From: an uncultured Anaerolineales bacterium
Lineage (GTDB): Bacteria; Chloroflexota; Anaerolineae; Anaerolineales; UBA11858
Direction: 5' to 3'
Assembly (NCBI GenBank): GCA_964406305.1
Contig: CAYORF010000004.1
Location: 2,237-66,236, forward strand
DNA: 64,000 bases
The position numbers and the translations under genes were made by a program. The notes under the pieces were generated by a model. It had not been told where the DNA came from and did not search any database. It worked only from the letters and a program-made list of their open reading frames with translations. Positions 11,637 through 57,801 of this stretch are shown here, piece after piece (position 1 is the first letter of the stretch; every line of letters begins with the position of its first letter).

Positions 11637-11646
11637 ATCACACCCT

Positions 11647-11681
11647 AATCACATATGTGATTTGTTTTCTCACATATGTGA
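11647..11681. promoter_or_regulatory. Tandem palindromic operator, copy 1
   Basis: TCACATATGTGA at 11649-11660 (within the perfect 16-bp palindrome AATCACATATGTGATT) and again at 11670-11681; starts are 21 bp apart. Confidence 0.85.
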
Positions 11682-11683
11682 TT

Positions 11684-11712
11684 ATTATAAGAGGAGAGAA
11701 TCCTTTTGTCAA
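11684..11712 (-). promoter_or_regulatory. Sigma70 promoter of the ulaE-like operon
   Basis: TTGACA (11712-11707), 17-bp spacer, TATAAT (11689-11684) on the minus strand; perfect consensus. Confidence 0.85.
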
Positions 11713-11779
11713 GCGGTAGCGGTAGGGGGTCAGGGTTTATTCTGTCTTATATCTGGGGTGAATCGTTCCTTAAAATAAG

Positions 11780-11811
11780 AATCCCGGGGAGTATGCTCTC
11801 CAGCCGGGATT
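11780..11811 (-). terminator. Putative intrinsic terminator after the hypothetical gene
   Basis: AATCCCGG...CCGGGATT hairpin followed by CTTATTTT on the minus strand. Confidence 0.55.
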
Positions 11812-11844
11812 GATTCGGTAAATATTAAAGGTTTTGGGCAGGTT

Positions 11845-12342
11845 CTATTCCTTCTTTTTTTTATCCTTTGCGGCCTGCTTTTCCTTGCGTTGATCCATTT
11901 CGCGCTGGAGCATTTCTCGGTTGCTGGGCATCATGCGCTGGATCTTGGCGCCCTGTAGGGCTTTAAGCGCTTTATCTGCCAGATCTTTTTCATTAAATAA
12001 TAGCTGTAAATTTTCAATTGTCTTTCTTTTAGGGCTCAGTGCCCCAATCCTGGCAATGTAAGGGAAAGGCGAAACTTCAATGGCCTTGTCCCAGGGAATG
12101 CCAATGATCTTTCGGATCTTCTTGTTGGATTTCTTTCTGTTCAGGTCATCGGACAGATGGGCTGATTTAGCCATTTCAACAATAAGGAATCTATAAATGC
12201 GAAGGAGATTATTCCAACAAAGGAACATGAACAACCCATACACCAGAATAATCGAATTGATGATCAGTTCATTTGCTTGATAAAAATATAAAATCGCTCG
12301 TCCAGCATCCCCCATTAGTGCTTCTAAAAATGGTCCTACCAT
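11845..12342 (-). CDS. Hypothetical membrane-anchored protein, Lys-rich C-terminus (165 aa)
   Basis: AGGAGGAG RBS before the ATG at 12342; one hydrophobic segment (LIINSIILVYGLFMFLCW). No family recognised. Confidence 0.7.
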   Translation of the reverse strand: MVGPFLEALMGDAGRAILYFYQANELIINSIILVYGLFMFLCWNNLLRIYRFLIVEMAKSAHLSDDLNRKKSNKKIRKIIGIPWDKAIEVSPFPYIARIGALSPKRKTIENLQLLFNEKDLADKALKALQGAKIQRMMPSNREMLQREMDQRKEKQAAKDKKKKE

Positions 12343-12361
12343 GCGAAATCTCCTCCTGATA

Positions 12362-12406
12362 TAAAAAAAGAAAGGGGTGTGCAATATCTATAATATTACA
12401 CACCCC
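12362..12406 (-). terminator. Intrinsic terminator after PTS IIC
   Basis: GGGGTGTGTAATAT/ATATTGCACACCCC stem followed by TTTCTTTTTTT on the minus strand. Confidence 0.8.
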
Positions 12407-12435
12407 GATTCTGTCAATCAAGTGTTACTAAAAGA

Positions 12436-13830
12436 TTACTCGCCTTTTGCGCCAGCAAGTTTGTCCCAGGCAGTTTCGTTCTTCTTGTATAAGTAGAAAA
12501 GCACGCCGGTGAGGACGGCAAATAGACCAATGCCGATCCAGCCAGTGTATTTACCAAGGAGCATGAAAACCAGCGGTGACCACACAAATCCGTCTGCAAT
12601 GCTGGAGATCATAACAGCATTACCGGGGATTGCAAATCCAGCGCCACCAGCAACCTCGGTGATAACCGGGGCCAATGCGTTGGCGAAGTAGAAACCGAAG
12701 ATCAAAAGGATGGTTCCCACAAAGACCATGCGGACAACGTTGCCCTTGGCCATAGGAGCGATCTGGGAGCACAGGAAAGGCAGTACAGCTAGGTCAGCAA
12801 AGAGCAGCATGCGGTTGCCAGGCAAGATGATGGACAGCAGAATGGCGATGGGGACCAACAGCAAGCCGGTGGAAATCGCGGAAGGATGTCCAACCAGAAC
12901 TGCGGAGTCCAGACCAATGTAAACTTCGCGGCCGGAAGCTCGTTTGGCCATGAAGGTGCGGGCGGCTTCGGAGACCGGGATCAAACCTTCCATAAGGATG
13001 CGGACCATGCGGGGCAGCAAAACCATCACTGCGGCCAGGTTTACACCCAGAAGAATTATTTTTCCAAGGGTCGGCACAAAGGCACCGGCAAATTCACCAG
13101 TGTAAGCGATCAGACCAAGCACCACACCGATAACCAGACCCATAACCATCGGATCACCAAAGGTGGAGCCGAGAGCTTTTTCGATTCCATCGGGGTCCGC
13201 GTCAACTTTGTTAAGGCCGGGGATCTTGTCGAACAGCCAGTTGAAAGGAAGCGCCAGGGGAACCATAGGAGCAGTCATACCATGAGGAATGGAGATGCCA
13301 GGCAGGTCATAGAATTCCTGAATACCTTTGGCAGTCCAGTCGCCCAGGAAGAGCATAAAAGCGGCTGCAACAGCAGCTGCGGCCATACCCATAATCACGT
13401 TTCCGGAAACGGCAGCTACCAGGGAACCGATCAGGGCATAGTGCCAGAAGTTCCACAGGTCAACATTGAGGGTCTTGGTGACGCCCGTGAATAACAGGGC
13501 GAAGTTTACAACCAAACCGATGGGAATGACCCACAGGCCGACGTCGGTAGCAAAGGCTACCGCGGCAGCGGCAGGCCAACCCACGTCAACGATGTCGCGG
13601 GAAATACCAGCATTGGTGACCATAGCTTGGGATACCTCAGCGAGGGCGCCCCACATCAGGCCAATAACGAGGTTAATACCGATGAAAGCCACACCGATGG
13701 TCACTGCAGCGCGGAAGGCCCGTCCAACTTTTGCGCCAAGGATCACGGCGAAAAGGAAGATGAACACTGGCAGCAATACCGTGGAGCCCAGGGTATCAAC
13801 AACAGATTTTAATACGGTTGCGAAATCCAT
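12436..13830 (-). CDS. gatC: PTS IIC component, galactitol (GatC) family
   Basis: Polytopic membrane protein with DVGWP, LNVDLWNFWH, LLPRMV..LMEGLIPVSE, IGLDSAVLVG, PGNRMLLFADLA. Substrate not established. Confidence 0.9.
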   Translation of the reverse strand: MDFATVLKSVVDTLGSTVLLPVFIFLFAVILGAKVGRAFRAAVTIGVAFIGINLVIGLMWGALAEVSQAMVTNAGISRDIVDVGWPAAAAVAFATDVGLWVIPIGLVVNFALLFTGVTKTLNVDLWNFWHYALIGSLVAAVSGNVIMGMAAAAVAAAFMLFLGDWTAKGIQEFYDLPGISIPHGMTAPMVPLALPFNWLFDKIPGLNKVDADPDGIEKALGSTFGDPMVMGLVIGVVLGLIAYTGEFAGAFVPTLGKIILLGVNLAAVMVLLPRMVRILMEGLIPVSEAARTFMAKRASGREVYIGLDSAVLVGHPSAISTGLLLVPIAILLSIILPGNRMLLFADLAVLPFLCSQIAPMAKGNVVRMVFVGTILLIFGFYFANALAPVITEVAGGAGFAIPGNAVMISSIADGFVWSPLVFMLLGKYTGWIGIGLFAVLTGVLFYLYKKNETAWDKLAGAKGE

Positions 13831-18162: not shown

Positions 18163-19155
18163 ATGACAGAACGTATGAAATGGGGTGTTCTGGGAACAGG
18201 CAAGATCACCTCGCGGTTTGCCCAAGCATTAAACAACATACCAGAACACGCTGAGCTCCTCGCAGTTGGATCAAGGAATCAGGAGACTGCTGACGCTTTT
18301 GGCGACAAATTCAAAATCCCCAGGCGTTATACAAGTTATGAGGATGTAGCCAAGGATCCTGATATCGATATCATATATATCGGCACGCCTGGTGTTTTCC
18401 ATCTGAGAGACGCCAGCCTGGCGCTTAATCACGGCAAACATGTACTATGTGAAAAAGCATTTACAATCAATGCCAAAGAAGCCCAGGAAATGGTTGATCT
18501 GGCCCGCGCAAAGAACTTATTTCTAATGGAAGCCATGTGGACCCGGTTCTTCCCGATCCACGTGAGAATCCGGGAATTGCTGGCAGAAAAAGTTCTTGGA
18601 AAGGTAAACGGGGTAACCATTAACTTTCTCGCAACAGCTCCCTTTGATCTAGAAAATCGCTTCTTTGACATTAACCTGGGCGCCAGTGTTTTGCTTGATA
18701 CTGCTGCTTATGGTGTATCCTGGTCCTCCAGCCTTTTCGGTGAACCAGAAGCTGTCACCGGCCTGGCGACAATTGGGGAAAGCGGCGCAGATTACCAGGT
18801 TGCCCTGGCGCTGAGATATAAAGAGGGTCAGCTGGCCAGTTTGCTATCCTCCCAAGTCTCCTATGATGACAAAGATGCCGTCCTGTTTGGCGAAAAGGGT
18901 AAAATCGTGGTCCATTCGCCTTGGTATAAACCAGTAGCCATGACCTTACACACCCAGGACAAAGAGCCTGAGTTGATCTCTATGCCTCTGGATGGCTACA
19001 ACGGCTATGAATACGAAGCCATGGAAGTGATGAATTGCATTAAGGCCGGTAAAACCGAGTCCGAGATCATGCCGCTAGATGAAACCCTCAGCATCATGAA
19101 GACCCTCGATACTTTCCGGGAACAATGGGGACATAAATTCCCCTTTGAGGATTAA
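18163..19155 (+). CDS. Gfo/Idh/MocA-family oxidoreductase
   Basis: WGVLGTGKI, GKHVLCEKAF, LMEAMWTRFFP. Start refined to the ATG at 18163 (GGAGG RBS). Confidence 0.9.
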   Translation: MTERMKWGVLGTGKITSRFAQALNNIPEHAELLAVGSRNQETADAFGDKFKIPRRYTSYEDVAKDPDIDIIYIGTPGVFHLRDASLALNHGKHVLCEKAFTINAKEAQEMVDLARAKNLFLMEAMWTRFFPIHVRIRELLAEKVLGKVNGVTINFLATAPFDLENRFFDINLGASVLLDTAAYGVSWSSSLFGEPEAVTGLATIGESGADYQVALALRYKEGQLASLLSSQVSYDDKDAVLFGEKGKIVVHSPWYKPVAMTLHTQDKEPELISMPLDGYNGYEYEAMEVMNCIKAGKTESEIMPLDETLSIMKTLDTFREQWGHKFPFED

Positions 19156-19183
19156 GTCAATCCTGAAATACAAAAGGTGAGCT

Positions 19184-20578
19184 ATGAGTAAATTTGATGT
19201 GATCGTAATTGGAGCGGGTCCAGCAGGATATGTATCAGCCATTCGAGCGGCTCAGCTTGGAAAACAGGTAGCTGTAATTGAAAAGGAATACCTGGGTGGG
19301 GTTTGTTTGAACGTTGGCTGTATCCCTTCCAAGAGTCTGCTAAAAAATGCTGACCTGGCATTTACGCTTACCAACCAGGCAAAAGATTTTGGAATCTCTT
19401 TTGATAACCTGAAATTGGATTATGCGGCTGCAGTGAAACGAAGCCGCCGGGTTTCAAAACGACTGATAAAGGGTGTTGAATTCTTACTGAAGAAGAATAA
19501 GATCACCCTTTATACTGGAAACGCGGAATTTGCCTCCCCTGATACTATTAATGTGATTGGAGCAGATGGAGAAGTGAAAATTACCGCGCCGAATATCATC
19601 ATAGCCACCGGCGCCCGGCCATTTATCATTCCCGGGATAGAAGTGGATGGCAAACAAGTGGTGACCTACAAGGAAGCCATCCTCCAAGAAAACCTGCCGA
19701 AGTCCGCTGTGATAGTGGGCGCTGGCGCAATTGGGATGGAATTTGCCACCATCTGGAACAGCTACGGCGTTCCTGTTACTGTCGTAGAAATGATGGACCG
19801 GATCACACCCAACGAAGACCCGGAAGTCAGCGACACACTAGAAAAAGCCATCAACAAACATGGCATTAAAACCCTCACAAAGACCAAAGTCACCAAGGTT
19901 GAAAAACTAAAAACCAAGTTGAATGTGACTGTTGAGGGTCCTGAGGGAAAAGAGAAGATCTCCACTGACCAGGTCCTTCTGGCAGCCAGTTTTGTTCCCA
20001 ATACTGACAGCCTGGGGCTGGAAAAAACCGGTGTCAATCTGGATAAGCACGGGTTCGTCGAAATTGACGACCGGATGGCGACCAATGTTCCTGGGATCTG
20101 GGCTATAGGTGACGTCACCGGAAAGCTAATGCTGGCTCACGCCGGTATGGCTATGGGTATAGTTTGCGCAGAAGTCATTGCTGGAGGATCTCCGGAAAAA
20201 CTAAACTTCCAGAACATGCCCAAAGCGACCTACTGCCATCCCCAGGTTGCATCCTTCGGGCTCACCGAAGAAGCTGCCAAAGCCGCTGGCTACGATGTTG
20301 CAGTTGGAAAATTTAACTTCCAGGCCAATGGAAAAGCCCTGGGGTTGAATGATTACGCAGGCTGGGTCAAGATTGTCACCGATAAAAAATTCGGGGAGAT
20401 CCTGGGGGCTCATATGATCGGCCCAGAAGTGACCGAGCTACTTCCAGAACTGACCCTGGCTCAGGCTAACGAGCTCACATCAGTTGAGATCGGGCATAAT
20501 ATCCACGCTCATCCAACATTAAGCGAGGTGCTGCACGAAGCCGCTAAAGACGTGACCGGAGAGGCTATTCACGCATAA
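19184..20578 (+). CDS. lpdA: Dihydrolipoyl dehydrogenase (E3)
   Basis: GAGPAGY, GGVCLNVGCIPSK redox disulfide, AIGDV, HAHPTLSE. Confidence 0.95.
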   Translation: MSKFDVIVIGAGPAGYVSAIRAAQLGKQVAVIEKEYLGGVCLNVGCIPSKSLLKNADLAFTLTNQAKDFGISFDNLKLDYAAAVKRSRRVSKRLIKGVEFLLKKNKITLYTGNAEFASPDTINVIGADGEVKITAPNIIIATGARPFIIPGIEVDGKQVVTYKEAILQENLPKSAVIVGAGAIGMEFATIWNSYGVPVTVVEMMDRITPNEDPEVSDTLEKAINKHGIKTLTKTKVTKVEKLKTKLNVTVEGPEGKEKISTDQVLLAASFVPNTDSLGLEKTGVNLDKHGFVEIDDRMATNVPGIWAIGDVTGKLMLAHAGMAMGIVCAEVIAGGSPEKLNFQNMPKATYCHPQVASFGLTEEAAKAAGYDVAVGKFNFQANGKALGLNDYAGWVKIVTDKKFGEILGAHMIGPEVTELLPELTLAQANELTSVEIGHNIHAHPTLSEVLHEAAKDVTGEAIHA

Positions 20579-37981: not shown

Positions 37982-39412
37982 ATGGCGCCCTTTCAGATTC
38001 TGACATTTTCTCCAAAAACCTCCTTTTTGAGGAAAATCCAAGACTTGCTATCTTCCAGTCCTGGTTTCCAACTAAAAAATATTCCCTCCCTCCCAGGAGA
38101 TATCCCGTCCGATATTGGGAAAGAAGACTGGATCGGTATAGTGGATCTGGACCACCAGTCCAAACCCCCGGATGTAATAGTTAATATCATTCAGGATCAT
38201 TATCCAGAAAATCAGTTCCTACTGCTATCAAAAGAACTCTCTCCTCTGCCTTCCTCTTCAACATCAGACTTATATCTGATCGATATTGATGCTCTTTCCA
38301 GTTCCCTGTTCCTTCCTTTCCTAACAGCATTAGCAGAAAAATCTGCTTTGATCAGCGCCAAACTGCAGGTTGAAACGGATCTCAACAAACGCTTGAGTGA
38401 GCTACTGCTAATCAGAAAAGCCAGCCTTCACTTAACAATGAATTTATCTCTTGATTCTGTGCTGGAATCTATTCTAGAGAGTGCCCTGGAATTAGTATCC
38501 GCGGATGACACCCACGTATTTTTGTATGAACATGGCATGTTGTCTTTTGCTGCAGCTCGATTTGATGGACACCAGCAGGGAAGGCCATTCATGAATCCCC
38601 GTTCTCATGGCATGACATACCAGGTCGCCAGAGAAGGTACAAAGATAGTTGCAGACAACACTATGACTAACCCAATATTCGAGGACCGCCGCTGGGAAGG
38701 ATCAATTATCGGTCTTCCTTTGAAAACAGGTAATACCGTACAGGGAGTGATGAACGTAGCTTTGAAGAGACCTCATGTTTTTACAGAAAACGAGATCCAA
38801 GCCCTGGAATTTTTAGCCGATCAGGCGTCGATAGCAATACAAAATGCCAAACTTTATGAGCAGGCCCAGCAAGAGATAACCGACCGCAAAAAGGCCGAAG
38901 AAGCAATCAAGCATATGGCCCACCATGATGCGCTGACCGGACTTCCCAATCGCCGCTTATTCAATGAAAGGATCTCCCTGGAAATCTCCCGCGCTCAAAG
39001 GAATAATCAAAAAATAGGCGTAATATTATTCGATTTGGACCATTTGAAAAAAGTAAATGATTCCTTTGGTCATTCTGTGGGAGATCTGCTTCTCCAGGCC
39101 GTAGCCCAGAGATTGTTGGGATTGCTTCGAAAAAGTGATACAGTGGCCCGAATGGGTGGAGATGAATTTTTATTGATACTTCCTGAGATGAAGCAGTCCA
39201 AAGATGCTGTTTTAACAGCCGAACGGATACTGAGCGCATTAAGTACTCCTTTCCTGCTAGAAGGTAATCAAATCAATATAACTACCAGCATTGGTATAGT
39301 ATTCTTCCCCGATGATGGGACAGAAGTTGATGACTTAATAAAAAAAGCAGATATAGCCATGTATAAAGCCAAGGAAAAAGGCGGCAATATCTACCACTTT
39401 TATACTGATTAA
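37982..39412 (+). CDS. GAF + GGDEF diguanylate cyclase
   Basis: GAF segment, HDALTGLPNR, DLDHLKKVND..GH..GD, intact RKSD I-site and GGDEF. Confidence 0.9.
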   Translation: MAPFQILTFSPKTSFLRKIQDLLSSSPGFQLKNIPSLPGDIPSDIGKEDWIGIVDLDHQSKPPDVIVNIIQDHYPENQFLLLSKELSPLPSSSTSDLYLIDIDALSSSLFLPFLTALAEKSALISAKLQVETDLNKRLSELLLIRKASLHLTMNLSLDSVLESILESALELVSADDTHVFLYEHGMLSFAAARFDGHQQGRPFMNPRSHGMTYQVAREGTKIVADNTMTNPIFEDRRWEGSIIGLPLKTGNTVQGVMNVALKRPHVFTENEIQALEFLADQASIAIQNAKLYEQAQQEITDRKKAEEAIKHMAHHDALTGLPNRRLFNERISLEISRAQRNNQKIGVILFDLDHLKKVNDSFGHSVGDLLLQAVAQRLLGLLRKSDTVARMGGDEFLLILPEMKQSKDAVLTAERILSALSTPFLLEGNQINITTSIGIVFFPDDGTEVDDLIKKADIAMYKAKEKGGNIYHFYTD

Positions 39413-40530: not shown

Positions 40531-41307
40531 ATGTCTGAAAAAGAATTTGTAGTGATCAAAATTATAGGGAAGGTAGGTTTGGTTAAACTCAACAGACCTG
40601 AATCATATAATGCGCTCAATCTGCAACTCTTATCCGAGTTAATGGAATCCCTAAAAGAATTGGATGAGAGGGATGATATTGGCGTAATAGTTATCACTGG
40701 CGATGAAAAATCATTTGCTGCCGGCGCAGACATATCCTCCATGGCAAAAGCTACAAAGGATGAAATTAGAAAAAGCAAATTCATTCCAACTTTTTCACTG
40801 ATAAGAGAAATCAAAAAACCTATCGTTGCCGCTGTTTCAGGATACTGTTTGGGAGGAGGATTGGAATTGGCCATGTCCTGCGATATAATCATCTCTTCCA
40901 CAAAATCAAAATTCGGTCAACCTGAAATCAACCTGGGTATTATTCCAGGAGCTGGAGGAACGCAGCGATTAACAAGAGCAGTTGGAAAAGTTATCGCAAT
41001 GGAAATGATCTTGAATAATCGGACACTAAAGGCTGAAGAGGCACTTTCGTTGGGATTGATCAATGCCGTGTATCCGGTAGAAGATTATCTGGAAGAAGGC
41101 CTTTCCCTGGCACAGGAAATTGCATCCAGGGCTCCATTGGCAATACAAGCTGCCAAACGAGCTATTAATCAAGTTGATGAATTAGCTTTAACAGATGGAT
41201 TGAATGAAGAAAGAGATCTGTTCTTTAATCTTTTTTCAACCCAGGACCAAAAAGAAGGAATGAGTGCTTTTCTTGAAAAAAGAAAACCGGGCTGGATAGG
41301 AAGTTGA
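40531..41307 (+). CDS. Enoyl-CoA hydratase/isomerase
   Basis: LNRPESYNAL, FAAGADI, GGGLELA, FGQPEINLGIIPGAGGTQRL. Confidence 0.93.
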   Translation: MSEKEFVVIKIIGKVGLVKLNRPESYNALNLQLLSELMESLKELDERDDIGVIVITGDEKSFAAGADISSMAKATKDEIRKSKFIPTFSLIREIKKPIVAAVSGYCLGGGLELAMSCDIIISSTKSKFGQPEINLGIIPGAGGTQRLTRAVGKVIAMEMILNNRTLKAEEALSLGLINAVYPVEDYLEEGLSLAQEIASRAPLAIQAAKRAINQVDELALTDGLNEERDLFFNLFSTQDQKEGMSAFLEKRKPGWIGS

Positions 41308-41319
41308 CTTTGCCCATAT

Positions 41320-41680
41320 CTATTATCCCCAATATGTATTAATAGTTATTTGTAGTAATCGTAGTAGGGCCTGTGGATATGTGGAAAATGTATTTTGAGA
41401 GTAATAATTGGTTTTAAGAACCGAATATATGGAGGATAACAAAAGGGCACTACCCAAATAGGGGGTCAAACTACCTTATAAGTGATTGGCATATTACCAA
41501 CAGGCAGGTGGGGATACTTTTGAATAGATTAGAGGTTTAATGGAAAATAATCAAAAAATCCAGAAAATTTGGAAAAGGTGTTTATAAGAGGCCTTTTTTT
41601 CCGCGAATAATTAGGTAAAAAGGGGGTAGTTATCCCCAAAAGGGACTAGTTATCCACATAAAGAGTGCACTTATCCACAG
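41320..41680. other. Putative chromosomal replication origin (oriC)
   Basis: DnaA boxes at 41323-41331, 41372-41380, 41380-41388, 41630-41638, 41650-41658 and 41671-41679 (the last two are perfect TTATCCACA). The minus strand reads TTTTCCACA-TATCCACA-GGCCC-TACTACGATTACTAC followed by an AT-rich stretch. Confidence 0.85.
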
Positions 41681-41711
41681 ATAATGAGCCCAAGTTAACA
41701 GATTATTAAGA

Positions 41712-41741
41712 TAAAAAAACCTTCAAAAAGAAGGTTTTTTT
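41712..41741 (-). terminator. Intrinsic terminator after glgC
   Basis: AAAAAAACCTTC-AAAAA-GAAGGTTTTTTT. Confidence 0.8.
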
Positions 41742-41767
41742 GTTGAAATTAAGGGTTTAAACGAGGT

Positions 41768-43024
41768 TTAATCAGGGGAAATAACAGTTCCATCGGGGAT
41801 GATCTTACTTTTGGGGATTACGACAATACCATCTCTGATGAACCAGATTTTTGTATCTTTTTCAGTTCCTGGAGGAAAAGGCTTGATAATTACATTTGAT
41901 CCAATCCTGGCGTTTTTATCAATGATTGCCCCATCGATATACGAATTCTTTCCAATCCCGATAGGGACTGGAAATTTGGGATCGGAATTTTCCTCGTAAT
42001 AATCGGCTCCCATGATAATGGTGTTTTTGATAACAGCTCCATCCTGGATCTGACTTCTTAATCCTATTACAGAATGAGATATCTCTGCGTTACCGATAGT
42101 ACATCCATCCGACAGGGAGACTCCTTTCATTTCTGCGCCACCAACAATAGACCCAGGGAGAAAGCGGGCGTGGGTATAGATAGGACGGTCGATATCATAG
42201 AAATTAAAGGGAGGAGAAGGTTTTGTCAGGTCGAGATTAGCATTATAAAAAGAGCGGATCGTTCCGATATCTTCCCAGTAACCCTCAAAATCATAACCAA
42301 CAACCTTATGGGTATGTATGGCATGAGGGATGACTTCCTTTCCAAAATCATCTACAACCAATTCTTTAAGAAGTTCGTCCAGGACAGATGTTTTAAATAA
42401 ATAGATTCCCATCGATCCTAATAGAGGCCGATCCGGGTCATCTCTGCTGACGAAGGATTTTTGAACAGCCGGGTCTTTAGTCTTCTCAACAAAATCGGTG
42501 ACAAGCTGATCTTCTCCCCTTTTGAGAATACCCAGGCGGGGAGCTTCTTCCATAGCCACTGGCTGCAGGGCAATTGATATATCACCATCGTTTTCCCACA
42601 TATGTCGAGCCATTTCCCCGTAATCCATCCGGTAAAGATGGTCTCCTGCCAGGATCAAGGTATACTCAGCGCCTGTGCTGTGGATCTCAAACATCTGCTG
42701 CCGGACGGCATCTGCTGTTCCCTGGTACCAGGTATCGTTGATATTGGTTTGCTCCGCGGCCCAGATCTGGACCCAGCCTCGATGAAAAGGATCGAAGTTA
42801 TAGGTCCTGGTGATATGGCGGTGAAGGGAGACGGAATTGAACTGGGTTAGGAGAGCGATCCGGTCGATATTGGAGTTGATGCAGTTGCTAATGGGAATGT
42901 CGATCAGGCGATACTTTCCCCCAATCGGGACGGCCGGCTTTGCGCGCACTTTCGTAAGTGGAAAAAGGCGGGTTCCCTGTCCTCCCCCCATGATCACGGC
43001 CAGGATATTTTTCGTTGATGGCAC
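41768..43024 (-). CDS. glgC: Glucose-1-phosphate adenylyltransferase
   Basis: GGGQGTRLFPLT..RAKPAV, YQGTADAV, LAGDHLY, FVEK, DFGKEVIP, YWEDIGT. Confidence 0.95.
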   Translation of the reverse strand: MPSTKNILAVIMGGGQGTRLFPLTKVRAKPAVPIGGKYRLIDIPISNCINSNIDRIALLTQFNSVSLHRHITRTYNFDPFHRGWVQIWAAEQTNINDTWYQGTADAVRQQMFEIHSTGAEYTLILAGDHLYRMDYGEMARHMWENDGDISIALQPVAMEEAPRLGILKRGEDQLVTDFVEKTKDPAVQKSFVSRDDPDRPLLGSMGIYLFKTSVLDELLKELVVDDFGKEVIPHAIHTHKVVGYDFEGYWEDIGTIRSFYNANLDLTKPSPPFNFYDIDRPIYTHARFLPGSIVGGAEMKGVSLSDGCTIGNAEISHSVIGLRSQIQDGAVIKNTIIMGADYYEENSDPKFPVPIGIGKNSYIDGAIIDKNARIGSNVIIKPFPPGTEKDTKIWFIRDGIVVIPKSKIIPDGTVISPD

Positions 43025-48226: not shown

Positions 48227-48315
48227 GTCTTCCGGCTTTCTAAACTATTAGGTAAAAAGGGCTCGCTTGGACTATAATTAATCCGTTGTATTATATACGA
48301 GCCCTGAAACCTCCC

Positions 48316-49578
48316 ATGTTTAATTCTCTAACAGCTTCTATCACAGAACCGGATGTCCGTAAAAAGATCCAGAAGATCGCCCAGTTAGTGGACATTAGTG
48401 CCATTCTAAATTCCACTTTAAAGCCGGAACTGCTGCTTCAGAATATCCTGGAGTCTGCCGCTGATTTGCTGGATTGTTGTGTTATTTCCATCTTGCTATA
48501 TGATGAAAGAGAAAAAGAACTCAGGTTTGCGGCAACCTCCAGTGTGAATATTGACCAGTTGGAACAGATCCCCGTTCCTTTGGATAATAGCCTGGCCGGA
48601 ACAATCTATACTGAAAACCGGCACCTGGTAATTAACAATACCAAAGATGATCCTCGACATTATGATGAAGTGGGCGACGAGGTCGGTCTGCAAGTTGATT
48701 CCTTATTAGGCGTTCCGATGCGTATCAAGGACAGGGTGACTGGCGTGATCGAAGCGTTAAATAAAGAAGAAGGCGACTTTACGGATTTTGATGTGTCGCT
48801 GCTGCTGGTTGTGGCTTCTCAGGCCGCAATCTCCATGCACAACGCCCAATTGATCCAGGCGCTGCAAAAAGCTAATATTGAGTTGAGCCAGGCCGATAAA
48901 TTAAAACGGGACTTAATGGCTGTTGCTTCTCATGAATTGCGCACGCCACTGGGAAATATTTTGGGATATGCCACTCTTTTATATGAAGATGCCATTGAAG
49001 AGAACAAGCCACTGGCCAGCTCGATCCTGAAAGCTTCTTCAAAACTGCGAGCAGTATTGGATGATATCGCCAATATGAATCTGCTTTACACCGGTGAAGC
49101 AGATCTGGACTTTGCTGACAGCACACTGCAACAGGTCATTGAATATGCCAAGGAAGAGGTTAATGCGACTGTCAATAGAGAGGACAACACTGTGGTGTAT
49201 GAACTTCCGGATGAGCCGATCCCTCTCAAGATCGATCTGCCCAAGATGAGTGTGGTTTTTGTTAATTTAATACTTAATGCCATTCGCTTTACACCGGTTG
49301 ACGGGGAAATTATTCTCCGTGTTTCGGACCGCAATGATGAAGTAATGGTCTCAATCGTTGATACTGGTAGGGGGATTGCGAAGGAAAGTCTGGAAAAGAT
49401 CTTCGAAGTTTTTTACCAGGAAGATGACCATATGACTCGGCGATATGGTGGATTGGGTCTGGGTCTTTCAATTGCGCGGGAATTAGTAAACCTGCACGGG
49501 GGAAGGATCTGGGCTGAAAGTGAAGGGCTTGGTAAAGGGGCCACGTTACAGGTTGTGCTGCCTAAACCAACTGCTTAA
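48316..49578 (+). CDS. GAF-domain sensor histidine kinase
   Basis: GAF segment, SHELRTPL, NLILNA, DTGRGI, GGLGLGLSI. Confidence 0.9.
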   Translation: MFNSLTASITEPDVRKKIQKIAQLVDISAILNSTLKPELLLQNILESAADLLDCCVISILLYDEREKELRFAATSSVNIDQLEQIPVPLDNSLAGTIYTENRHLVINNTKDDPRHYDEVGDEVGLQVDSLLGVPMRIKDRVTGVIEALNKEEGDFTDFDVSLLLVVASQAAISMHNAQLIQALQKANIELSQADKLKRDLMAVASHELRTPLGNILGYATLLYEDAIEENKPLASSILKASSKLRAVLDDIANMNLLYTGEADLDFADSTLQQVIEYAKEEVNATVNREDNTVVYELPDEPIPLKIDLPKMSVVFVNLILNAIRFTPVDGEIILRVSDRNDEVMVSIVDTGRGIAKESLEKIFEVFYQEDDHMTRRYGGLGLGLSIARELVNLHGGRIWAESEGLGKGATLQVVLPKPTA

Positions 49579-49591
49579 TTTCTGATAAGTC

Positions 49592-50590
49592 TTAACCGCT
49601 TGATGCGGAGTCTCCCATAACTAAAGATTCACATAGTTCCAGGAAGCTATCAAATGCCGCCAGCCGAACGAGGTAATCCTTCCCGGCGAATCCCAATGTT
49701 GTTAACGCTTTTATCCAGGGTAGCTGTAAATCAGTCCGGTCTGGTAAGGTTGAGATGATCTTGGTCCAGGTCACAATCAGCGGCCATAAAGCGTCAGCTG
49801 CCTTAGAATTTTTAACGGTATCGACCAAGGCATTTTTAAAATAGATCTCCCGTTCCACGAGTAAGGGGGGAGAAGATGATTCCGCCTTCAGAATAGCAAC
49901 AGATTTTTCCCAAGCATCGATCCATCCTACCATTGTTTCTTCTGATAAAGTGATTCCTCCAAGTAAATGCTGAAAGGCTATGTTCAACCCCGGGGCGTCA
50001 ACAGCAGCGGCTCGATCAGCGAAGGATAATCCCAGGCGGCGGGTAGCTAGCGGAGGTCCGGATATTATAGCCACTGCGTTTATCGCTGCTTCTAGGGCGG
50101 ATAAAAAGGCAGGAATTTCAGCGATTATTTGCAGGGGTGGTGAGATCTGGCGATCCATCCAGAACTGGCGCGCAGTTTCAAGAAGGGGTTTACTTCTGCC
50201 TTGTATGTTTTCCGGAAAATCGAAGTTACTCCGAACACCGGCTTGCGTATAGTCTAATAAGTGGCGGGGGTCGTGGAGAGGGACGGCATCCCTTAAGGTC
50301 GGGCCTAACCAGGGATCCAGGCGCAGCTCTCGCGGTGTCCGGTAGATCAATTCATCGTGGTGCTCAATATCAAAATGTATCTCGGGGGTGATCCTGATGA
50401 TTTGATGTTCATTCAGTGGAGGGGCGTTGTGGATGAAAACTAGATCGATATCCCCTGCTCCGCCGATCAATGGAGATCCGTAAAGTAAGGAGCCACGCAA
50501 ATAGGCCGCCAGTATAGAACGGTTATTTTTGGTTTCTTTATCGACCAGAATCTGGGCGTGTTTACGAAGTATTTCAGGCGTGAAACGCAT
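49592..50590 (-). CDS. Hypothetical protein with a Pol-beta-type nucleotidyltransferase motif
   Basis: AAYLRGS...GDIDLVFI resembles the hG[GS]x9-13DhD motif. Confidence 0.6.
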   Translation of the reverse strand: MRFTPEILRKHAQILVDKETKNNRSILAAYLRGSLLYGSPLIGGAGDIDLVFIHNAPPLNEHQIIRITPEIHFDIEHHDELIYRTPRELRLDPWLGPTLRDAVPLHDPRHLLDYTQAGVRSNFDFPENIQGRSKPLLETARQFWMDRQISPPLQIIAEIPAFLSALEAAINAVAIISGPPLATRRLGLSFADRAAAVDAPGLNIAFQHLLGGITLSEETMVGWIDAWEKSVAILKAESSSPPLLVEREIYFKNALVDTVKNSKAADALWPLIVTWTKIISTLPDRTDLQLPWIKALTTLGFAGKDYLVRLAAFDSFLELCESLVMGDSASSG

Positions 50591-50613: not shown

Positions 50614-51249
50614 TCAGGCTTTATGAAAAAACTGAGTCTGGTATGGACCAACTTTGAGGGTTTGGCGGATCCGGTTTTCAACCCAGTCCAAATCGCCTTC
50701 GTTAGCGACATAATTGAGCTGGTTGGTATTGATCCTTAACACTGGCGCGCCGCTTTGTTCTCCGCTGTAAAATTCGTCGTAGGCATTATTTAGGCTTTCA
50801 ATATAACCCTGGTCCATATTCCTTTCATATACCCTGTCCCGGTGGGCTATCCGCTGCATCAAAATACTGGTTTCGGCTTGCAGATATACGATCAGATCGG
50901 GCAAAGTCAATTTTTCAGCTAGAGCGTTATGCACACTGAAGTACGTATCTAATTCGTCTCCATCCAGATTTAAGCGGGCGAAGAGAGCATCTTTTTCAAA
51001 GGTGTAGTCTGCGATCAGATTATTGTCCGACTTCAACGCCTTGGGAACTTCCTGCTGCTGATGGTATCGGCTCAGTAAGAAGAAGATCTGGGTTTGAAAG
51101 GCGTACGCGTCCCGATCGGAATAAAAATCAGCCAGGAAAGGATTCTCTTCGAATACCTCAAGCAGCAAATCAGCCTGGAAACGGGACGATAATAATCGAG
51201 ATAAAGTGGTTTTTCCAACACCAATCGCGCCTTCAATTGCTATATACAT
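50614..51249 (-). CDS. Deoxynucleoside kinase (dCK/dGK family)
   Basis: IEGAIGVGKTT, ENPFL..FY, QIFFLLSR, RIAHRDRVYE. Confidence 0.92.
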   Translation of the reverse strand: MYIAIEGAIGVGKTTLSRLLSSRFQADLLLEVFEENPFLADFYSDRDAYAFQTQIFFLLSRYHQQQEVPKALKSDNNLIADYTFEKDALFARLNLDGDELDTYFSVHNALAEKLTLPDLIVYLQAETSILMQRIAHRDRVYERNMDQGYIESLNNAYDEFYSGEQSGAPVLRINTNQLNYVANEGDLDWVENRIRQTLKVGPYQTQFFHKA

Positions 51250-51936: not shown

Positions 51937-54900
51937 ATGATTTCCCCCCAGAAGAAAAAAACCATCCTTATCATTGCGGGAATGATCCTTTTGATGGGGT
52001 TGATCAGTTTGTCCTGCAATCTCCCTGCGGGTTTAGAAGAAAAGTTTTTCGGCTCAGGGAGGACAACAGAGCCCACGCCAATACCGACTAATACACCGCA
52101 ACCTTTGCCGCCAACGATCGTTGAATCAGATCCTCCTATGGGGTCAACCATTCCTCTCCAGGGAGATATCATTCTTTATTTTAATCAACCCATGGACCAG
52201 GATTCTGTCGTTAGTGCCTTGTCATATGATCCTAGAATAGAAACCACGTATTCTTGGCTTGATCCAGCGACCTTGAATATCCAGCTAGATCAGAAACTGG
52301 AACCCAATACAAAACTGGTACTTAATCTCGATACTACTGCCAAGGCAGTCAATGAATTGACCCTGCCTATGATTGCCAATCTGGATTATTACACACCTGA
52401 CTGGCTCAAATCAGTCACGCTTCTGCCATCTCCAGGTGGGATAGAGATCGACCCTGAATCTGCCATTGTGGTCGCTTTTAACCAGCCAGTTGTACCACTG
52501 GGAGATTTCCAACGCGATGAACCCACAGCCCTGACCCTCAGTCCATCTGTGCCCGGGATAGGAAATTGGATCAATACCAGCACCTATCAATTTTCTCCCG
52601 ATCCGGGCCTTGCTGGAGGCACAACCTATCAGATATCACTTTCGAGAGATTTAGCCAGCCTGGCTGGTGCGGCACTAGATCCAGAAAGCACTCAAACCTG
52701 GTCGTTTTCCACTGCTTATCCACAAATGTTATCCTGGGAACCCTTCCACGGAGAAAATGGAGTCCCGCTGGATGCGGAGATCCAAATGGGATTTAATCAG
52801 GCAATGGATCCTGATAGCGTTGTTGATAATTTCTCTCTGATTGACGGCGACGGCCATCAGATAACAGGGGAGATGGAATGGGATGAGGAGATGCGAGATT
52901 TTGTATTTATCCCCGACCAGATTTTTTCACGAGCTACTTCATATGCCGGTATCCTCCCGGGAGAAGTGCTATCTGCAGGGGGCACCCCACTGCAGTTGGA
53001 TACAACTTTTGATTTCCAGACCACCGGTGAATTCCAGTATCTAGGAACCCCCGGGGGGCAGAACTACACAACCTCGATTTATGAAGGGGTAACTTTATAT
53101 TTCAACAACACGGTGGATTTTGACACCGTAGACGATAACATCAAGATCATTCCTGAAGTTACTAATTTAAGGCCTTCAAACGGGGAATCAGGGAATGTGC
53201 TAAACTTGTATGGGGACTTCGAACCGCTCACTAACTACAGACTAATCGTTAGGGAATCCCTGGCGGATGAATGGGGCAGTATATTGGGCAATGTCCGGGC
53301 GGTCAACTTTAATACCGAGCCGCTGCCGCCTAACTTGACAATTACCCAGGGCAACAACATCCTTTTCCTAACAGGAACAGAAAATGCGATCCCGGCCCAG
53401 GGCACAAATCTACACCAGGTGTCTGTCAACGTGGGCACTCTGCCATTAGATATACTCCCAGACTTGTTCGGCTATGGTCTTTATGACACCCTGGAAGATT
53501 ATTACCCGACCGATGCTCAGCTTTGGATCCACCAAGTCAGAGTAGCCGGGGATGATAAATATACGGTCAACCTTCCGTTAAACCAATCAGGGAATGCCCT
53601 GGCACCAGGTTTATACCGTTATCAGGTCTATTCTCAGGACTTGCCTTATAACCCGTCTCCTTATTTGCTCGCGGTTAGCAACATTCACTTAACAATGAAA
53701 ACCAGCCCGGAAAATCTCTTGATCTGGGCAGTTGATCTGCGGTCTGGAGAAGTTGTGCCAGATGCCGAAGTTAAGGTCTACAATTCCGGTGGAGAAGTCT
53801 TTTTCTCAGGAAAAACTGATCAGGATGGTGTCTTCCAGGCAGATTTCTTACATGCCTTTGATCTTTATAATAATGTTTTTTATGCCATCACGGGTGAAGC
53901 CGGCCAGGATGATTTTGGCATCACGGCCAGTAATTGGGGTTTTGGATCAGAACCCTATGAATTTGGGTTGAGATCTGATTATGGTGCGCCAAAACCACAG
54001 ACCTATATTTATACAGATCGACCTATTTACCAGCCAGGTCAGACTGTGTATTATCGGTTGATCCATCGCAATCGTGATGGCGCTGGGTATGTTCTACCAG
54101 AAGAGCAATCCATTCCCTTGACGATCCACCTGCATGGTAAAGAGGAAAATACTATCAATCTGCCTTTATCTGAATATGGTACTGCCCAGGGAGAGATCCA
54201 GCTTTCATCACAAGCGGAACCGGGATACTATCGGTTAGAGACGGAAACAGGAATGGTGTATTTCCAGGTTGCGAATTATAGGAAACCAGAGATCGAACTG
54301 GAACTTAATATGGACCAGGAAGAAACCCTGGTGGGTGAAGAATTCCAGGCAGAATTGGACGCGCGATATTATTTTGACGCACCGGCCAGTGATGTCCGGT
54401 TGGGCTGGACTTTGAGAGCGGAGCCAACTAGCTTTAGAATTCCTGGCTACCAGGTTGGAGTGTTAGGAAGCAACTGGTTTGTTTATCCAGGCACGTATTA
54501 TTCTTCTATCTGGGGAACCCGGATAGATTCTGGAGAAGATCAGACCAACGCCAATGGTGAATGGACTATTCAGCAAATTCTGACCAATATCGATATCTAT
54601 GATCGAGAAGTCACACTGCCGGCAAATTATTCCCTTGAAGTAACTGCCCAGGACGAAACCGGATTCCAGGTTACTAACAGATCGGAGATACTGGTTCACC
54701 CCAGCGATTTTTATATCGGAATCAAACCCTCTGCCTGGGTAACCGTTACAGAACAGGCGGTGGATTTTGAGATTCTGGCTGTGGATTGGGAGAAAGAACC
54801 AGATGGGATCAAAGCGCTGTCAGCTGAATTTTATAAAGTTGTCTGGCAGTATGAAATTGGTGAGATCGGGGAAATAGACTATGTCCGCGAAAAAGAATTG

Positions 54901-57801
54901 GTTGCTGAACAAAGTTTCAGCACAAACCAGGGCGGGGAGGCCGAATTAACTTTTTCCCCACCGGAACCAGGCACTTATCAACTGGACATTTTTGGTGACG
55001 GAGCTCGGACAGAAGCGACACTTTGGGTTGGAGGTGCAGGCGTAACTGTCTGGCCGACTCAGACCAATCAGAAGATAACCCTGATAGCCGACCAGGACAT
55101 CTACCAACCAGGTGACGAAGCGACAATCTTCATCCCTAATCCCTTCCCAGATGGCGCCCAGGCGCTGGTGACTGTCGAACGCCATAAAGTGATCTCATAT
55201 GAAACCTTTTCGATCACTTCTTCTGGTCAGGAAGTTACAATCCCCCTGAGTGATGCAGATGCGCCAAATGTTTACCTTGCGGTTACATTGATTGGCCAGA
55301 ACTCTGATGGACAAAGTAGCTTCCGGCAGGGCTATATCAACCTGCTGGTGGACCCAGTTAATCAGATGCTCCAGGTAGAAGTGGTTGGTGAACCAGAGCG
55401 GCTTGGCCCAGGAGAGGAAGTTCAGTTTACTCTTCGGGTTACAGATCCGGAAGGGGAACCAATGGAAGGGGAATTCTCTTTGGCAGTGGTTGATAAAGCT
55501 GTCCTAGCACTAACAGAACCCAATTCCCCCCAGATCGGCGAGGCTTTTTATGGCATTCAACCCATCGCGGTCCGAATGGGCCTCCCTTTGGGAATGCATG
55601 CAGGTAGATTGGTTTGGGTACCTGGAGGTATGGGGGGTGGCGATGGCGGCGCTGAGTATTCTGTTCGGGATCAGTTTGAAGATACAGGATACTGGCAGGC
55701 GAATATAGTTACCGATGAAGATGGTCTGGCACAGGTAGCATTTAACTTGCCGGACAATCTTACAACCTGGCAGGCTGACGCTCGGGGTATTACAAAACAA
55801 ACACAGGTTGGGGAAGCTACAACAGAAGTTGTAACAACGAAAGATCTATTGATTCGCCCTGTGACCCCGCGCTTCCTGGTGGCAGGAGATCACCTGGCTT
55901 TGGCCGCAGTAATTCACAATAACACGACAATAGAACTAACGACTGATGTGTCCCTCCAGGGAGCAGGCATACAATTGGATAACCTGGATTTTTCAACCCA
56001 GACAGTGGAAATTCCCGCTGAAGGAAGGGTTCGAGTTGAATGGTGGGGTACCGTGGAAAATGTAGATGAAGTTGATTTGGTATTTGTTGCTGATGCAGGA
56101 GACTACCAGGATGCAGTGAAACCCTACCAGGGACCGCTGCCTGTTCTGCGTTATATCACTCCCTACAGCTATGCCACATCTGGTGTAATGGATCAGGCTG
56201 GTCAGAAACTGGAGATAGTCTCTCTGCCTAGAAGTTATGATCCAACTGATGGATATCTTGATATTGAGATGTCACCATCTTTGGCTGCAGCTGTCCTCAA
56301 AGCGCTGGACGCGCTGGAAGAGGATCAGCACTACTCTACAATAGCACAAATGTTCCACTTCTTACCCAATGCCATTACTTACCAGGCTTTGCAGGAATTG
56401 GGAGTGGATTACCCGCATTTGGATAGCCGTTTGGAAATATTGATCCCTGAGACCCTTGATGTATTGGATGCAGCACAAAACGATGATGGGGGTTGGGGCT
56501 GGTGGAAGGGCGGAGCAAGTGACCCCGAGATCAGTTCCTATATTCTTTTTGGTTTGATCAAATCCCAGGAAGCAGGTGTGTTTGTAGAAGACCTGATGAT
56601 TCAACAAGCTCGAGGTTACCTGCTGGCAACCTTGCCAGCCTTGGATATGTTATCTGAACCGTGGCAATATAACCTGCTCGCACTGAGATATTTTTCATTG
56701 ACTGAAGCTGGGACAGATGTCAGTTCAGGGATGCAAGCCCTGGTTTCACTAAGCAGCCAACTTGATCCTGGCAGTCAGGCGCTGTTGGCGATGGCCCTGG
56801 AGAAATGGCAGCCTGGAAACGATTCAACCCGATCCTTGTTATCTAATCTGGCCGGAACCGGGATACGGACAGCCACCGGAATCCATTGGGAAAATGGCGA
56901 GAACCGCTTGTCCTGGATGAACAACACAACAACTACAACAGCAATAGTTACCTATGCCATGGCACGAGTGGAAGAGTCGCCTGAGATACTTCCGAAAGCA
57001 GTCCGCTACCTGGTATCAACGCAGACTCAGGAGGGTGATTGGTGGTCAACTTATGAAACAGGTTGGTCTGTTCTGGCACTGAATGAGGTTCTGAGAAAAA
57101 GCGGCGAATTGGTCAGTGAATATGAATTTTCAAGTACGGTAAATGGTAGAGAGATGATCAGTGGACAGGCAGAAGGATCAAGTCAATTGGAAGCTGCTTT
57201 TGCTTCAATACCAGTAGAGGATCTGTATTCCGAAGAACCCAACGCCCTGGTAATCAATCGCTCTGAAGGCAGTGGGATCTTGTATTACAGGTCCCATTTA
57301 CAGGTTTTCCGACCAGCAGAGGACGTGCAGCCATATGGGCACGGCCTGAGCATTTCCAGGGTTTATGCTGATCTGTTTGGTCCGGAAGGAGTTAATTTTA
57401 CACAGAAGGGTGAAGTCGGTCAACTTATCCAGGTTCAGCTGACGTTGGTTTTGGAAAATGATTCCTATTACTTGATGGTTGAAGATCAGATTCCGGCCGG
57501 GGCCGAGATTCTGGATACCAGGCTAAATACCTCCCGCCAGGATCTGGAGGAGTATCAGGCAGCTGAGCCGTTCAAAAACGGTTGGGGTTGGTGGTATTTT
57601 AATAGGCCTCTTGTGTTAGATGATCGTGTTACCTGGGCGGCAAATTTCTTACCGGCTGGTACATATCAATTAACCTACACAATTTCTTTAGCACATCCTG
57701 GTGAATACCAAGTATTGCCGGCCCGGGCCTGGCAGGTTTACTTCCCTGAAGTCCATGCTATCAGCGCGGGAGAGAAATTCGTAGTGAAAGCTGGTCAATA
57801 A
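51937..57801 (+). CDS. Alpha-2-macroglobulin-family lipoprotein with N-terminal Ig-like (Big_5) repeats
   Basis: Lipobox LSLSC-like (ISLSC); repeated FNQPM/FNQAM Ig units; YTDRPIYQPG, YRKPE, LPDNLTTW, QNDDGGWGWW, VEDQIPAGAE, AWQVYFPE. Confidence 0.9.
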   Translation: MISPQKKKTILIIAGMILLMGLISLSCNLPAGLEEKFFGSGRTTEPTPIPTNTPQPLPPTIVESDPPMGSTIPLQGDIILYFNQPMDQDSVVSALSYDPRIETTYSWLDPATLNIQLDQKLEPNTKLVLNLDTTAKAVNELTLPMIANLDYYTPDWLKSVTLLPSPGGIEIDPESAIVVAFNQPVVPLGDFQRDEPTALTLSPSVPGIGNWINTSTYQFSPDPGLAGGTTYQISLSRDLASLAGAALDPESTQTWSFSTAYPQMLSWEPFHGENGVPLDAEIQMGFNQAMDPDSVVDNFSLIDGDGHQITGEMEWDEEMRDFVFIPDQIFSRATSYAGILPGEVLSAGGTPLQLDTTFDFQTTGEFQYLGTPGGQNYTTSIYEGVTLYFNNTVDFDTVDDNIKIIPEVTNLRPSNGESGNVLNLYGDFEPLTNYRLIVRESLADEWGSILGNVRAVNFNTEPLPPNLTITQGNNILFLTGTENAIPAQGTNLHQVSVNVGTLPLDILPDLFGYGLYDTLEDYYPTDAQLWIHQVRVAGDDKYTVNLPLNQSGNALAPGLYRYQVYSQDLPYNPSPYLLAVSNIHLTMKTSPENLLIWAVDLRSGEVVPDAEVKVYNSGGEVFFSGKTDQDGVFQADFLHAFDLYNNVFYAITGEAGQDDFGITASNWGFGSEPYEFGLRSDYGAPKPQTYIYTDRPIYQPGQTVYYRLIHRNRDGAGYVLPEEQSIPLTIHLHGKEENTINLPLSEYGTAQGEIQLSSQAEPGYYRLETETGMVYFQVANYRKPEIELELNMDQEETLVGEEFQAELDARYYFDAPASDVRLGWTLRAEPTSFRIPGYQVGVLGSNWFVYPGTYYSSIWGTRIDSGEDQTNANGEWTIQQILTNIDIYDREVTLPANYSLEVTAQDETGFQVTNRSEILVHPSDFYIGIKPSAWVTVTEQAVDFEILAVDWEKEPDGIKALSAEFYKVVWQYEIGEIGEIDYVREKELVAEQSFSTNQGGEAELTFSPPEPGTYQLDIFGDGARTEATLWVGGAGVTVWPTQTNQKITLIADQDIYQPGDEATIFIPNPFPDGAQALVTVERHKVISYETFSITSSGQEVTIPLSDADAPNVYLAVTLIGQNSDGQSSFRQGYINLLVDPVNQMLQVEVVGEPERLGPGEEVQFTLRVTDPEGEPMEGEFSLAVVDKAVLALTEPNSPQIGEAFYGIQPIAVRMGLPLGMHAGRLVWVPGGMGGGDGGAEYSVRDQFEDTGYWQANIVTDEDGLAQVAFNLPDNLTTWQADARGITKQTQVGEATTEVVTTKDLLIRPVTPRFLVAGDHLALAAVIHNNTTIELTTDVSLQGAGIQLDNLDFSTQTVEIPAEGRVRVEWWGTVENVDEVDLVFVADAGDYQDAVKPYQGPLPVLRYITPYSYATSGVMDQAGQKLEIVSLPRSYDPTDGYLDIEMSPSLAAAVLKALDALEEDQHYSTIAQMFHFLPNAITYQALQELGVDYPHLDSRLEILIPETLDVLDAAQNDDGGWGWWKGGASDPEISSYILFGLIKSQEAGVFVEDLMIQQARGYLLATLPALDMLSEPWQYNLLALRYFSLTEAGTDVSSGMQALVSLSSQLDPGSQALLAMALEKWQPGNDSTRSLLSNLAGTGIRTATGIHWENGENRLSWMNNTTTTTAIVTYAMARVEESPEILPKAVRYLVSTQTQEGDWWSTYETGWSVLALNEVLRKSGELVSEYEFSSTVNGREMISGQAEGSSQLEAAFASIPVEDLYSEEPNALVINRSEGSGILYYRSHLQVFRPAEDVQPYGHGLSISRVYADLFGPEGVNFTQKGEVGQLIQVQLTLVLENDSYYLMVEDQIPAGAEILDTRLNTSRQDLEEYQAAEPFKNGWGWWYFNRPLVLDDRVTWAANFLPAGTYQLTYTISLAHPGEYQVLPARAWQVYFPEVHAISAGEKFVVKAGQ

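Follow-up and report, generated by a model that had tools for sequence, protein, structure and literature searches.

Can the replication origin of a bacterial chromosome be placed with confidence at a locus that has none of the usual replication genes beside it? The question is raised by a short intergenic region in the 64-kb stretch of DNA analysed here (hereafter the window), at which a sequence-only reading had proposed an origin with a Bacillus-type unwinding module, far from dnaA. Adjacency to indicator genes (dnaA, dnaN, rpmH, gidA, hemE and others) is usual for an oriC, not defining (Table S2 of PMC10225481), and at 41308-41767 it is absent within the 64-kb window. Nevertheless, considering the order, spacing and conservation of the elements, the instability of the duplex, and the switches in skew and gene orientation, we regard 41308-41767 as very probably the chromosomal oriC of this uncultured Anaerolineales bacterium, with a canonical unwinding module and away from dnaA. 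The closest matches to its glgC come from metagenome-assembled Anaerolineales genomes, with identities of up to 97%. Near-identical sequence to the segment 40500-43100 is found in salt-lake, marine and marine-sediment metagenomes, which gives an indication of the habitat of the organism.

The proposed origin occupies the whole gap between two genes, and its immediate surroundings are the following.

40531 to 41307, plus strand: gene for an enoyl-CoA hydratase, 3' end toward the origin.
41308 to 41767, no strand: proposed oriC, the whole intergenic region of 460 bp, 66% A+T.
41712 to 41736, minus strand: hairpin with a T-run, just 3' of the glgC stop codon, as read from the sequence.
41768 to 43024, minus strand: glgC (glucose-1-phosphate adenylyltransferase), 3' end toward the origin.

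The placement between the hydratase gene and glgC was thus correctly given by the sequence-only reading, which had not remarked that the two genes converge on the 460-bp gap. As they do, the region between them needs no promoter. Its A+T content of 66% compares with an average of 53% for the 64-kb window. A search of 41308-41767 yielded no meaningful open reading frame and no promoter-like site, and an Rfam scan of the same region gave no family above threshold, the two sub-threshold hits being attributable to chance. An explanation of the gap as an RNA gene or a promoter region was rejected on these grounds. The hairpin at 41712-41736 looks like a terminator, on the basis of its sequence, and would as such insulate the origin against transcription from glgC; a comparable hairpin is seen in the alignment of close relatives, and a consensus scan did not call the one in the window.

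The core of the region is formed by a compact set of elements at the hydratase side.

41372 to 41388, minus strand: tandem DnaA-box pair, a 9-mer, TTTTCCACA (41388-41380), abutted by an 8-mer, TATCCACA (41379-41372).
41368 to 41371, minus strand: GC gap, GGCC on this strand (CCGG when the other strand is read 3' to 5').
41353 to 41367, plus strand: DnaA-trio array, 3'-GAT GAT GCT AAT GAT-5', the minus strand of which reads CTA CTA CGA TTA CTA.
41331 to 41354, no strand: AT-rich element of 88% A+T, the putative unwinding site.

The order of box, box, GC gap, trinucleotides and AT-rich DNA on the minus strand is as it had been described at the outset. The second box can also be read as a 9-mer, (A)TATCCACA at 41380-41372, in which case the A at 41380 is common to both boxes. 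The repeats had been given as TAC-TAC-GAT-TAC-TAC; the sequence itself is right, but the register is one base out with respect to the published convention, by which it is CTA CTA CGA TTA CTA. On the minus strand the AT-rich stretch, 41352-41331, is CAAATAACTATTAATACATATT. Of all 24-mers in the 64-kb window, the overlapping segment 41331-41354 has the lowest stability (only 0.005% are equally unstable), and it lies directly after the trios, where an unwinding element is to be expected; a probable AT-rich unwinding element thus flanks the boxes, as is characteristic of an oriC.

This layout can be compared with the basal unwinding system (BUS; Pelliciari 2021, PMC8287927), which consists of a DnaA box, often in tandem, and three or more trios of the form 3'-NAN-5', separated by a spacer of no more than 16 bp, and which was predicted in 85% of 2070 DoriC origins (PMC8287927). 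The definition allows two mismatches in a box that is oriented, as 5'-TTATCCACA-3', toward the trios; TTTTCCACA has one, in the orientation used in Table S1 of PMC8287927. A tandem box, with at most four mismatches, should follow 0-3 bp downstream of the first, and (A)TATCCACA, with one mismatch, abuts it. The spacer, which separates the better box from the first trio, should not exceed 16 bp (the mode is 10-13) and should end in a short GC-rich gap; here it measures 12 and ends in CCGG. Only the requirement of at least three consecutive 3'-NAN-5' units (consensus GAT) is not matched in full: four of the five units conform to the consensus, the exception being trio 3 (GCT). Since the run GAT GAT GCT AAT GAT is broken at unit 3, the regular expression of the published program for at least three consecutive units is not strictly matched. 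Five unbroken trios do occur in seven relatives of the same architecture, for example GAT GAT GAT AAT GAT in L008. Throughout the clade, conservation extends to trios 1, 2, 4 and 5 and, within trio 3, to an invariant third base. Trio 3 itself (41359-41361 in the window, alignment columns around 527-529) is mostly off consensus, being GCT or TCT in 15 of 24 sequences, and this pattern suggests that the trio positions may have unequal roles in the lineage. For searching genomes, the motif of this origin type can be written as TCCACNTNTCCNCANNCYCTACNA.

The similarity to Bacillus that the sequence-only reading had recognised is borne out by Table S1 of Pelliciari 2021 (PMC8287927), in which the B. 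subtilis module is listed as AATAGGTGT / TTAGGTGT / CCGG / GAT GAT AAT GAA GAT GAT with a spacer of 12, i.e. a 9-mer, an 8-mer, the gap and the trios. In the same notation the module of the window is 3'-AAAAGGTGT / ATAGGTGT / CCGG / GAT GAT GCT AAT GAT-5', also with a spacer of 12. We count 25 identical bases among the first 27. The order, orientation and spacing are those of incC in the B. subtilis oriC (Richardson 2016, 2019; PMC8287927; PMC6669920), including the AT-rich stretch after the trios; TTAGGTGT abuts the first box as (A)TATCCACA does in the window, and the GC gap is identical to that of both B. subtilis and D. radiodurans. The differences concern, in the window, the off-consensus trio 3 and a reversed box past the AT-rich stretch. 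They also concern the setting. The B. subtilis module is found between dnaA and dnaN, in an origin that is split in two by dnaA, whereas in the window a single 460-bp region separates the hydratase gene from glgC and dnaA is absent from all 64 kb.

Besides the tandem pair, the region contains further DnaA boxes and two copies of a palindrome.

41323 to 41331, plus strand: TTATCCCCA, a DnaA box in reversed orientation beyond the AT-rich stretch, pointing back at the unwinding element.
41421 to 41465, no strand: two degenerate palindrome copies, CCCCCTATTTGGG (41465-41453) and CCTCCATATATTCGG (41435-41421).
41494 to 41517, no strand: degenerate facing box pair, GTATCCCCA (41509-41517, minus) and TTACCAACA (41494-41502, plus).
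41568 to 41587, minus strand: two weak boxes, TTTTCCAAA and TTATAAACA, from the box scan and the alignment.
41630 to 41679, plus strand: array of three boxes in the same direction, 20-21 bp apart, TTATCCCCA (41630), TTATCCACA (41650) and TTATCCACA (41671).

In total seven boxes with at most one mismatch lie within 357 bp, where 0.09 would be expected (Poisson P about 1e-11). The expectation was derived from dinucleotide shuffles, which gave 16.8 boxes per 64 kb and hence 0.09 per 357 bp; the whole 64 kb has 24. When two mismatches are allowed, 41308-41767 contains 11 boxes against 1.7 expected. A chance origin of the cluster was rejected on the basis of these statistics together with its conservation. 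The rule of Mackiewicz, in the form in which it is quoted in PMC7561715, asks for at least three boxes with no more than one mismatch and an average spacing below 100 bp; the seven boxes in 357 bp, two of them perfect, are well within this description.

The three-box array, like the reversed box, had not been mentioned in the sequence-only reading. Two of its three boxes are perfect, and it is located 250-300 bp from the unwinding module, at the glgC side. Its boxes form invariant columns in an alignment of 23 sequences and are also present in distant origins of the same type. Judged by its sequence, the array at 41630-41679 is probably a high-affinity platform for the assembly of DnaA. At the position of the facing pair the relatives have TATCCCCA-N7-TGTGGACAA, and the weak box TTATAAACA aligns with TTATCCACA or TTATACACA. 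The reversed distal box lies 16 bp past the stop codon of the hydratase gene, and most relatives have GGGGATAA, or a variant of it, in its place.

The palindrome, the consensus of which in the relatives is CCCCATATATGGGG, contains a CC[AT]6GG core; one to four copies of it are located in the interval from the three-box array to the unwinding module. Its association with the origin is strong: 22 matches lie inside origin regions versus two in the flanks. Moreover, it is specific to origins without dnaA, being absent from all 25 modules that are adjacent to dnaA. Copies were also seen in L008, around 11520-11540, and upstream of the modules in L100, L143, L162 and L163. The palindrome may be the site of a regulator or may form a cruciform.

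The conservation of the region is tightly bound to the origin elements. All relatives with a glgC identity of at least 70% have a cluster of DnaA boxes near glgC, just past its stop codon in every case except L010, whereas those with 65% identity or less have no such cluster adjoining glgC. The check on synteny that had been called for came out in favour of the origin: in 23 relatives (glgC identity 70-97%) the box pair, an NCCC gap and the CTACTA motif are found about 400 bp past the glgC stop, the distance being 2.5 kb in L010. The latter has an insert of about 2.2 kb between the glgC stop and the origin (11252-13784), the flanking gene order being conserved otherwise. In the alignment of 23 sequences (the window and 22 relatives) the mean column identity is only 50%, yet nearly all of the invariant columns coincide with the three-box array or with boxes and trios of the unwinding module. 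At the level of sequence these invariant islands constitute a clear phylogenetic footprint.

The composition of the surrounding DNA changes at the same point. The cumulative GC skew of the 64-kb window has its minimum at about 40.5 kb, with a skew of -0.057 to the left of the site and +0.070 to the right. Coding bases are for 68% on the minus strand at the left and for 75% on the plus strand at the right. Since skew also tracks the gene strand, genes on the same strand were compared. The mean skew of plus-strand genes is 0.013 left and 0.121 right of the site (P = 0.0016), and that of minus-strand genes -0.104 and 0.000 (P = 0.004). A regression assigned an effect of 0.044 to the replication side and of 0.052 to the gene strand, and part of the skew signal therefore follows the latter. 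Within the 64-kb window the local sign change of the skew and the switch in gene orientation coincide with the site, as is characteristic of an oriC. The skew also turns from negative to positive at the module in all 12 relatives that have at least 7 kb on each side, an agreement that is not fully independent as close relatives share gene order. By comparison, 18 more distant relatives without a box cluster beside glgC have no consistent skew flip at glgC. The local skew minimum, the orientation switch, and the conservation of the locus with the same skew switch in relatives together lend support to the origin that had been read from the sequence.

The reading had also stated that dnaA, dnaN, gyrB, gidA and rpmH do not occur within 41 kb to the left and 22 kb to the right, and this was corroborated by Pfam scans and motif searches. 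The scans covered 52 open reading frames of the window (almost every long one that lies outside a larger one) and recovered no dnaA, dnaN, gyrB or true gidA, the hits being metabolic, transport and regulatory proteins. Six-frame searches of the 64-kb window, for which the DnaA motifs GKTHL and DH[TS]T[VI] were used, found no signature of DnaA or of rpmH. In the relatives, too, the flanks of the element, which extend to 10 kb at most, were free of any DnaA signature. Two regulatory genes lie within a few kb of the origin, a GAF-GGDEF diguanylate cyclase at 37982-39412 (plus strand) and, on the other side, a GAF histidine kinase at 48286-49578 (plus strand), with no evidence of a link in either case. 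Further away, 51937-57801 (plus strand) encodes a bacterial alpha-2-macroglobulin-like protein of 1954 aa, with MG, bait-region and Big_5 domains.

The same type of origin is found in other gene contexts. A scan of metagenomes with the module pattern returned 120 loci. Among the first 80 of these, 25 show the classical layout of dnaA followed by the module, with a DnaA signature on the same strand at a distance of 200-610 bp upstream. In 17 others the flanks are sufficient but the signature is missing; two of these (L113 and L161) do have a DnaA Walker-A motif upstream. The full architecture of three phased boxes, at least one CCCCATATATGGGG palindrome, a facing box pair and the module is common to the loci without dnaA, and it appears in unrelated gene contexts (L038, L100, L120, L141, L153, L163 and others). 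Where flanks of 2 kb or more were available on both sides, the skew is lower at the left than at the right in nine of ten loci without dnaA, versus 13 of 15 dnaA-adjacent controls.

In many of these distant lineages (L038, L120, L132, L141, L153, L162, L163 and others) the side of the three boxes abuts the 3' end of a gene for a protein of about 332 aa, which is preceded by a gene for a deoxynucleoside kinase. The window has the same pair of genes at 49592-50590 and 50614-51249 (both minus strand), about 7.9 kb to the right of the origin, so that in the family of the window the block from glgC to the histidine kinase lies between the pair and the origin. In L038, where the pair is found at 18179-19846, the same origin type resides on a contig of 5.45 Mb. 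The protein of about 332 aa has no sequence match in Pfam or the PDB. Its N-terminus carries a GS...DxD motif that is nucleotidyltransferase-like, and the best fold match of its AlphaFold model (pLDDT 73.8) is the nucleotidyltransferase-like structure 3c18, at an E-value of 0.13, which is not significant. All matches in a protein search with this neighbour came from the same clade; none was from a cultured complete genome, and the longest contig among them measured 1.03 Mb. Further long contigs with this type of origin are CAWAGA010000002.1 (5.45 Mb, with the module near 1.8747 Mb), CAWAOV010000006.1 (482 kb) and CAWGOD010000009.1 (331 kb).

Could the locus bind DnaA for another purpose than to start replication? 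Clusters of DnaA boxes outside origins exist, and those of E. coli datA and DARS likewise lie away from dnaA; the region could thus serve as a titration or recycling site of that kind, or as a regulatory region under the control of DnaA, with the origin elsewhere, perhaps beside dnaA. However, datA and DARS are not known to have a trio array, unwinding element or skew switch, and a site of this type would be a box cluster that lacks an unwinding module and lies away from a skew switch. The locus in the window has a trio array, a skew switch and a complete module with the weakest duplex of the window, and it sits exactly at the conserved switch in skew and gene orientation. In addition, convergent genes leave no promoter to regulate, and the loci of the same architecture elsewhere resemble the dnaA-adjacent controls in skew. 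We consider such a role quite unlikely.

The possibility that the region is one of two origins, or a silent former origin with its sequence kept while initiation takes place mainly elsewhere, we hold to be very unlikely. A preprint does report predicted dual origins for some bacteria (bioRxiv 10.1101/2025.08.05.668638), but the boxes and trios of the region are invariant in 22 aligned relatives that span 70-97% glgC identity and persist in far more divergent lineages, which argues for continued selection, and at an origin that had fallen silent no sharp switch in skew would persist. Plasmids, too, include some whose origins make use of DnaA boxes, and the region might in principle belong to an integrated or secondary replicon such as a plasmid or chromid. 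That there is no rep or mobility gene nearby, that no iterons were noticed, that the neighbours are housekeeping and metabolic genes in an order that is stable across many species, and that relative L038 carries the same origin type on a contig of multi-megabase size together make this extremely improbable. All three alternatives are thus disfavoured by the trios, the unwinding element, the conserved skew switch and the housekeeping neighbours.

If the region is taken as oriC, a course of initiation can be outlined by analogy with B. subtilis and with cross-phylum work. DnaA would occupy the strong boxes, i.e. the three phased boxes at 41630-41679, together with the weaker central ones, and the tandem pair at 41372-41388 would position an oligomer of ATP-DnaA. 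This oligomer would extend over the GGCC gap onto the DnaA-trios of the plus strand (41353-41367), upon which the adjacent AT-rich stretch of 22 bp (41331-41352) would be opened and the replicative helicases loaded there, with forks departing in both directions. The reversed distal box and the palindromes may play a part as well.

A wider reading is offered only tentatively, as it may well prove wrong. In a broad group of Anaerolineae-like Chloroflexota the origin would have long been separated from dnaA and have acquired a conserved design of its own, with three phased boxes, one to four CCCCATATATGGGG palindromes, a facing pair, a canonical module and, distal to it, a box in reverse orientation. 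In that case the palindrome would be the site of a lineage-specific origin regulator, the ancestrally abutting 332-aa gene could be functionally tied to the origin, and the existing dnaA-adjacent predictions for the phylum would be misplaced.

The uncoupling of oriC and dnaA has precedents. The oriC of E. coli, between gidA and mioC, is likewise an origin with DnaA boxes that lies apart from dnaA, at a distance of roughly 40 kb. Its R1 box points toward the unwinding element, as in the window. In the E. coli module, however, one proximal box stands alone, the spacer measures 10 bp and the trios are weak and no more than three in number (score 7), unlike in that of the window, and E. coli relies on 13-mer repeats, IHF and a control by GATC/SeqA, none of which is evident in the window; the flanking genes differ too. 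In cyanobacteria oriC lies next to dnaN and not dnaA (DoriC 5.0, PMC3531139). There the uncoupling is likewise lineage-wide and the origin is recognised by conserved neighbours and box clusters, but dnaN is a replication gene, whereas the neighbours in the window are not; in the wider lineage they are the 332-aa gene and the deoxynucleoside kinase gene. Closer by, the Chloroflexi entries in Table S1 of Pelliciari 2021 (PMC8287927) are all weak, with trio scores of 4-10 versus 25 for B. subtilis. The entry for Anaerolinea thermophila UNI-1 (ORI94030346), of the same phylum and order and based on DnaA boxes as well, has a 16-bp spacer and is found at positions 420-460 of the record. In contrast to these weak predictions, the module of the window is canonical and strongly conserved. 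A search of the available literature found no paper on the origins of Anaerolineae.

Unwinding modules of this type are already known to be widespread, and origins distant from dnaA are well known, in E. coli and the cyanobacteria, so that the origin in the window is a further example and its kind is not new; current understanding is not overturned by it. What it adds is modest: a strong module in a phylum with weak entries, a palindrome that is specific to the origin type, and a conserved neighbour that is not a replication gene. It had been anticipated that such an origin would be missed by dnaA-anchored prediction. A link to dnaA does add to the score, but it is not the sole criterion of Ori-Finder and DoriC, which combine skew and box clusters with indicator genes. 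The region nevertheless serves as a reminder that origin calls which lean on dnaA can miss origins in such lineages. For an abundant uncultured order of the Chloroflexota, a phylum for which the published predictions of origins and modules are all weak, it provides a well-supported origin. The motif of box pair and trios, with glgC or the 332-aa gene as neighbour, offers a marker for orienting metagenome-assembled genomes and for estimates of growth rate based on coverage. Over a stretch as short as 64 kb the gradient in coverage to be expected amounts to about 1%. Finally, that the Bacillus-type module has been retained with so few base changes in a distant phylum speaks for its being ancestral.
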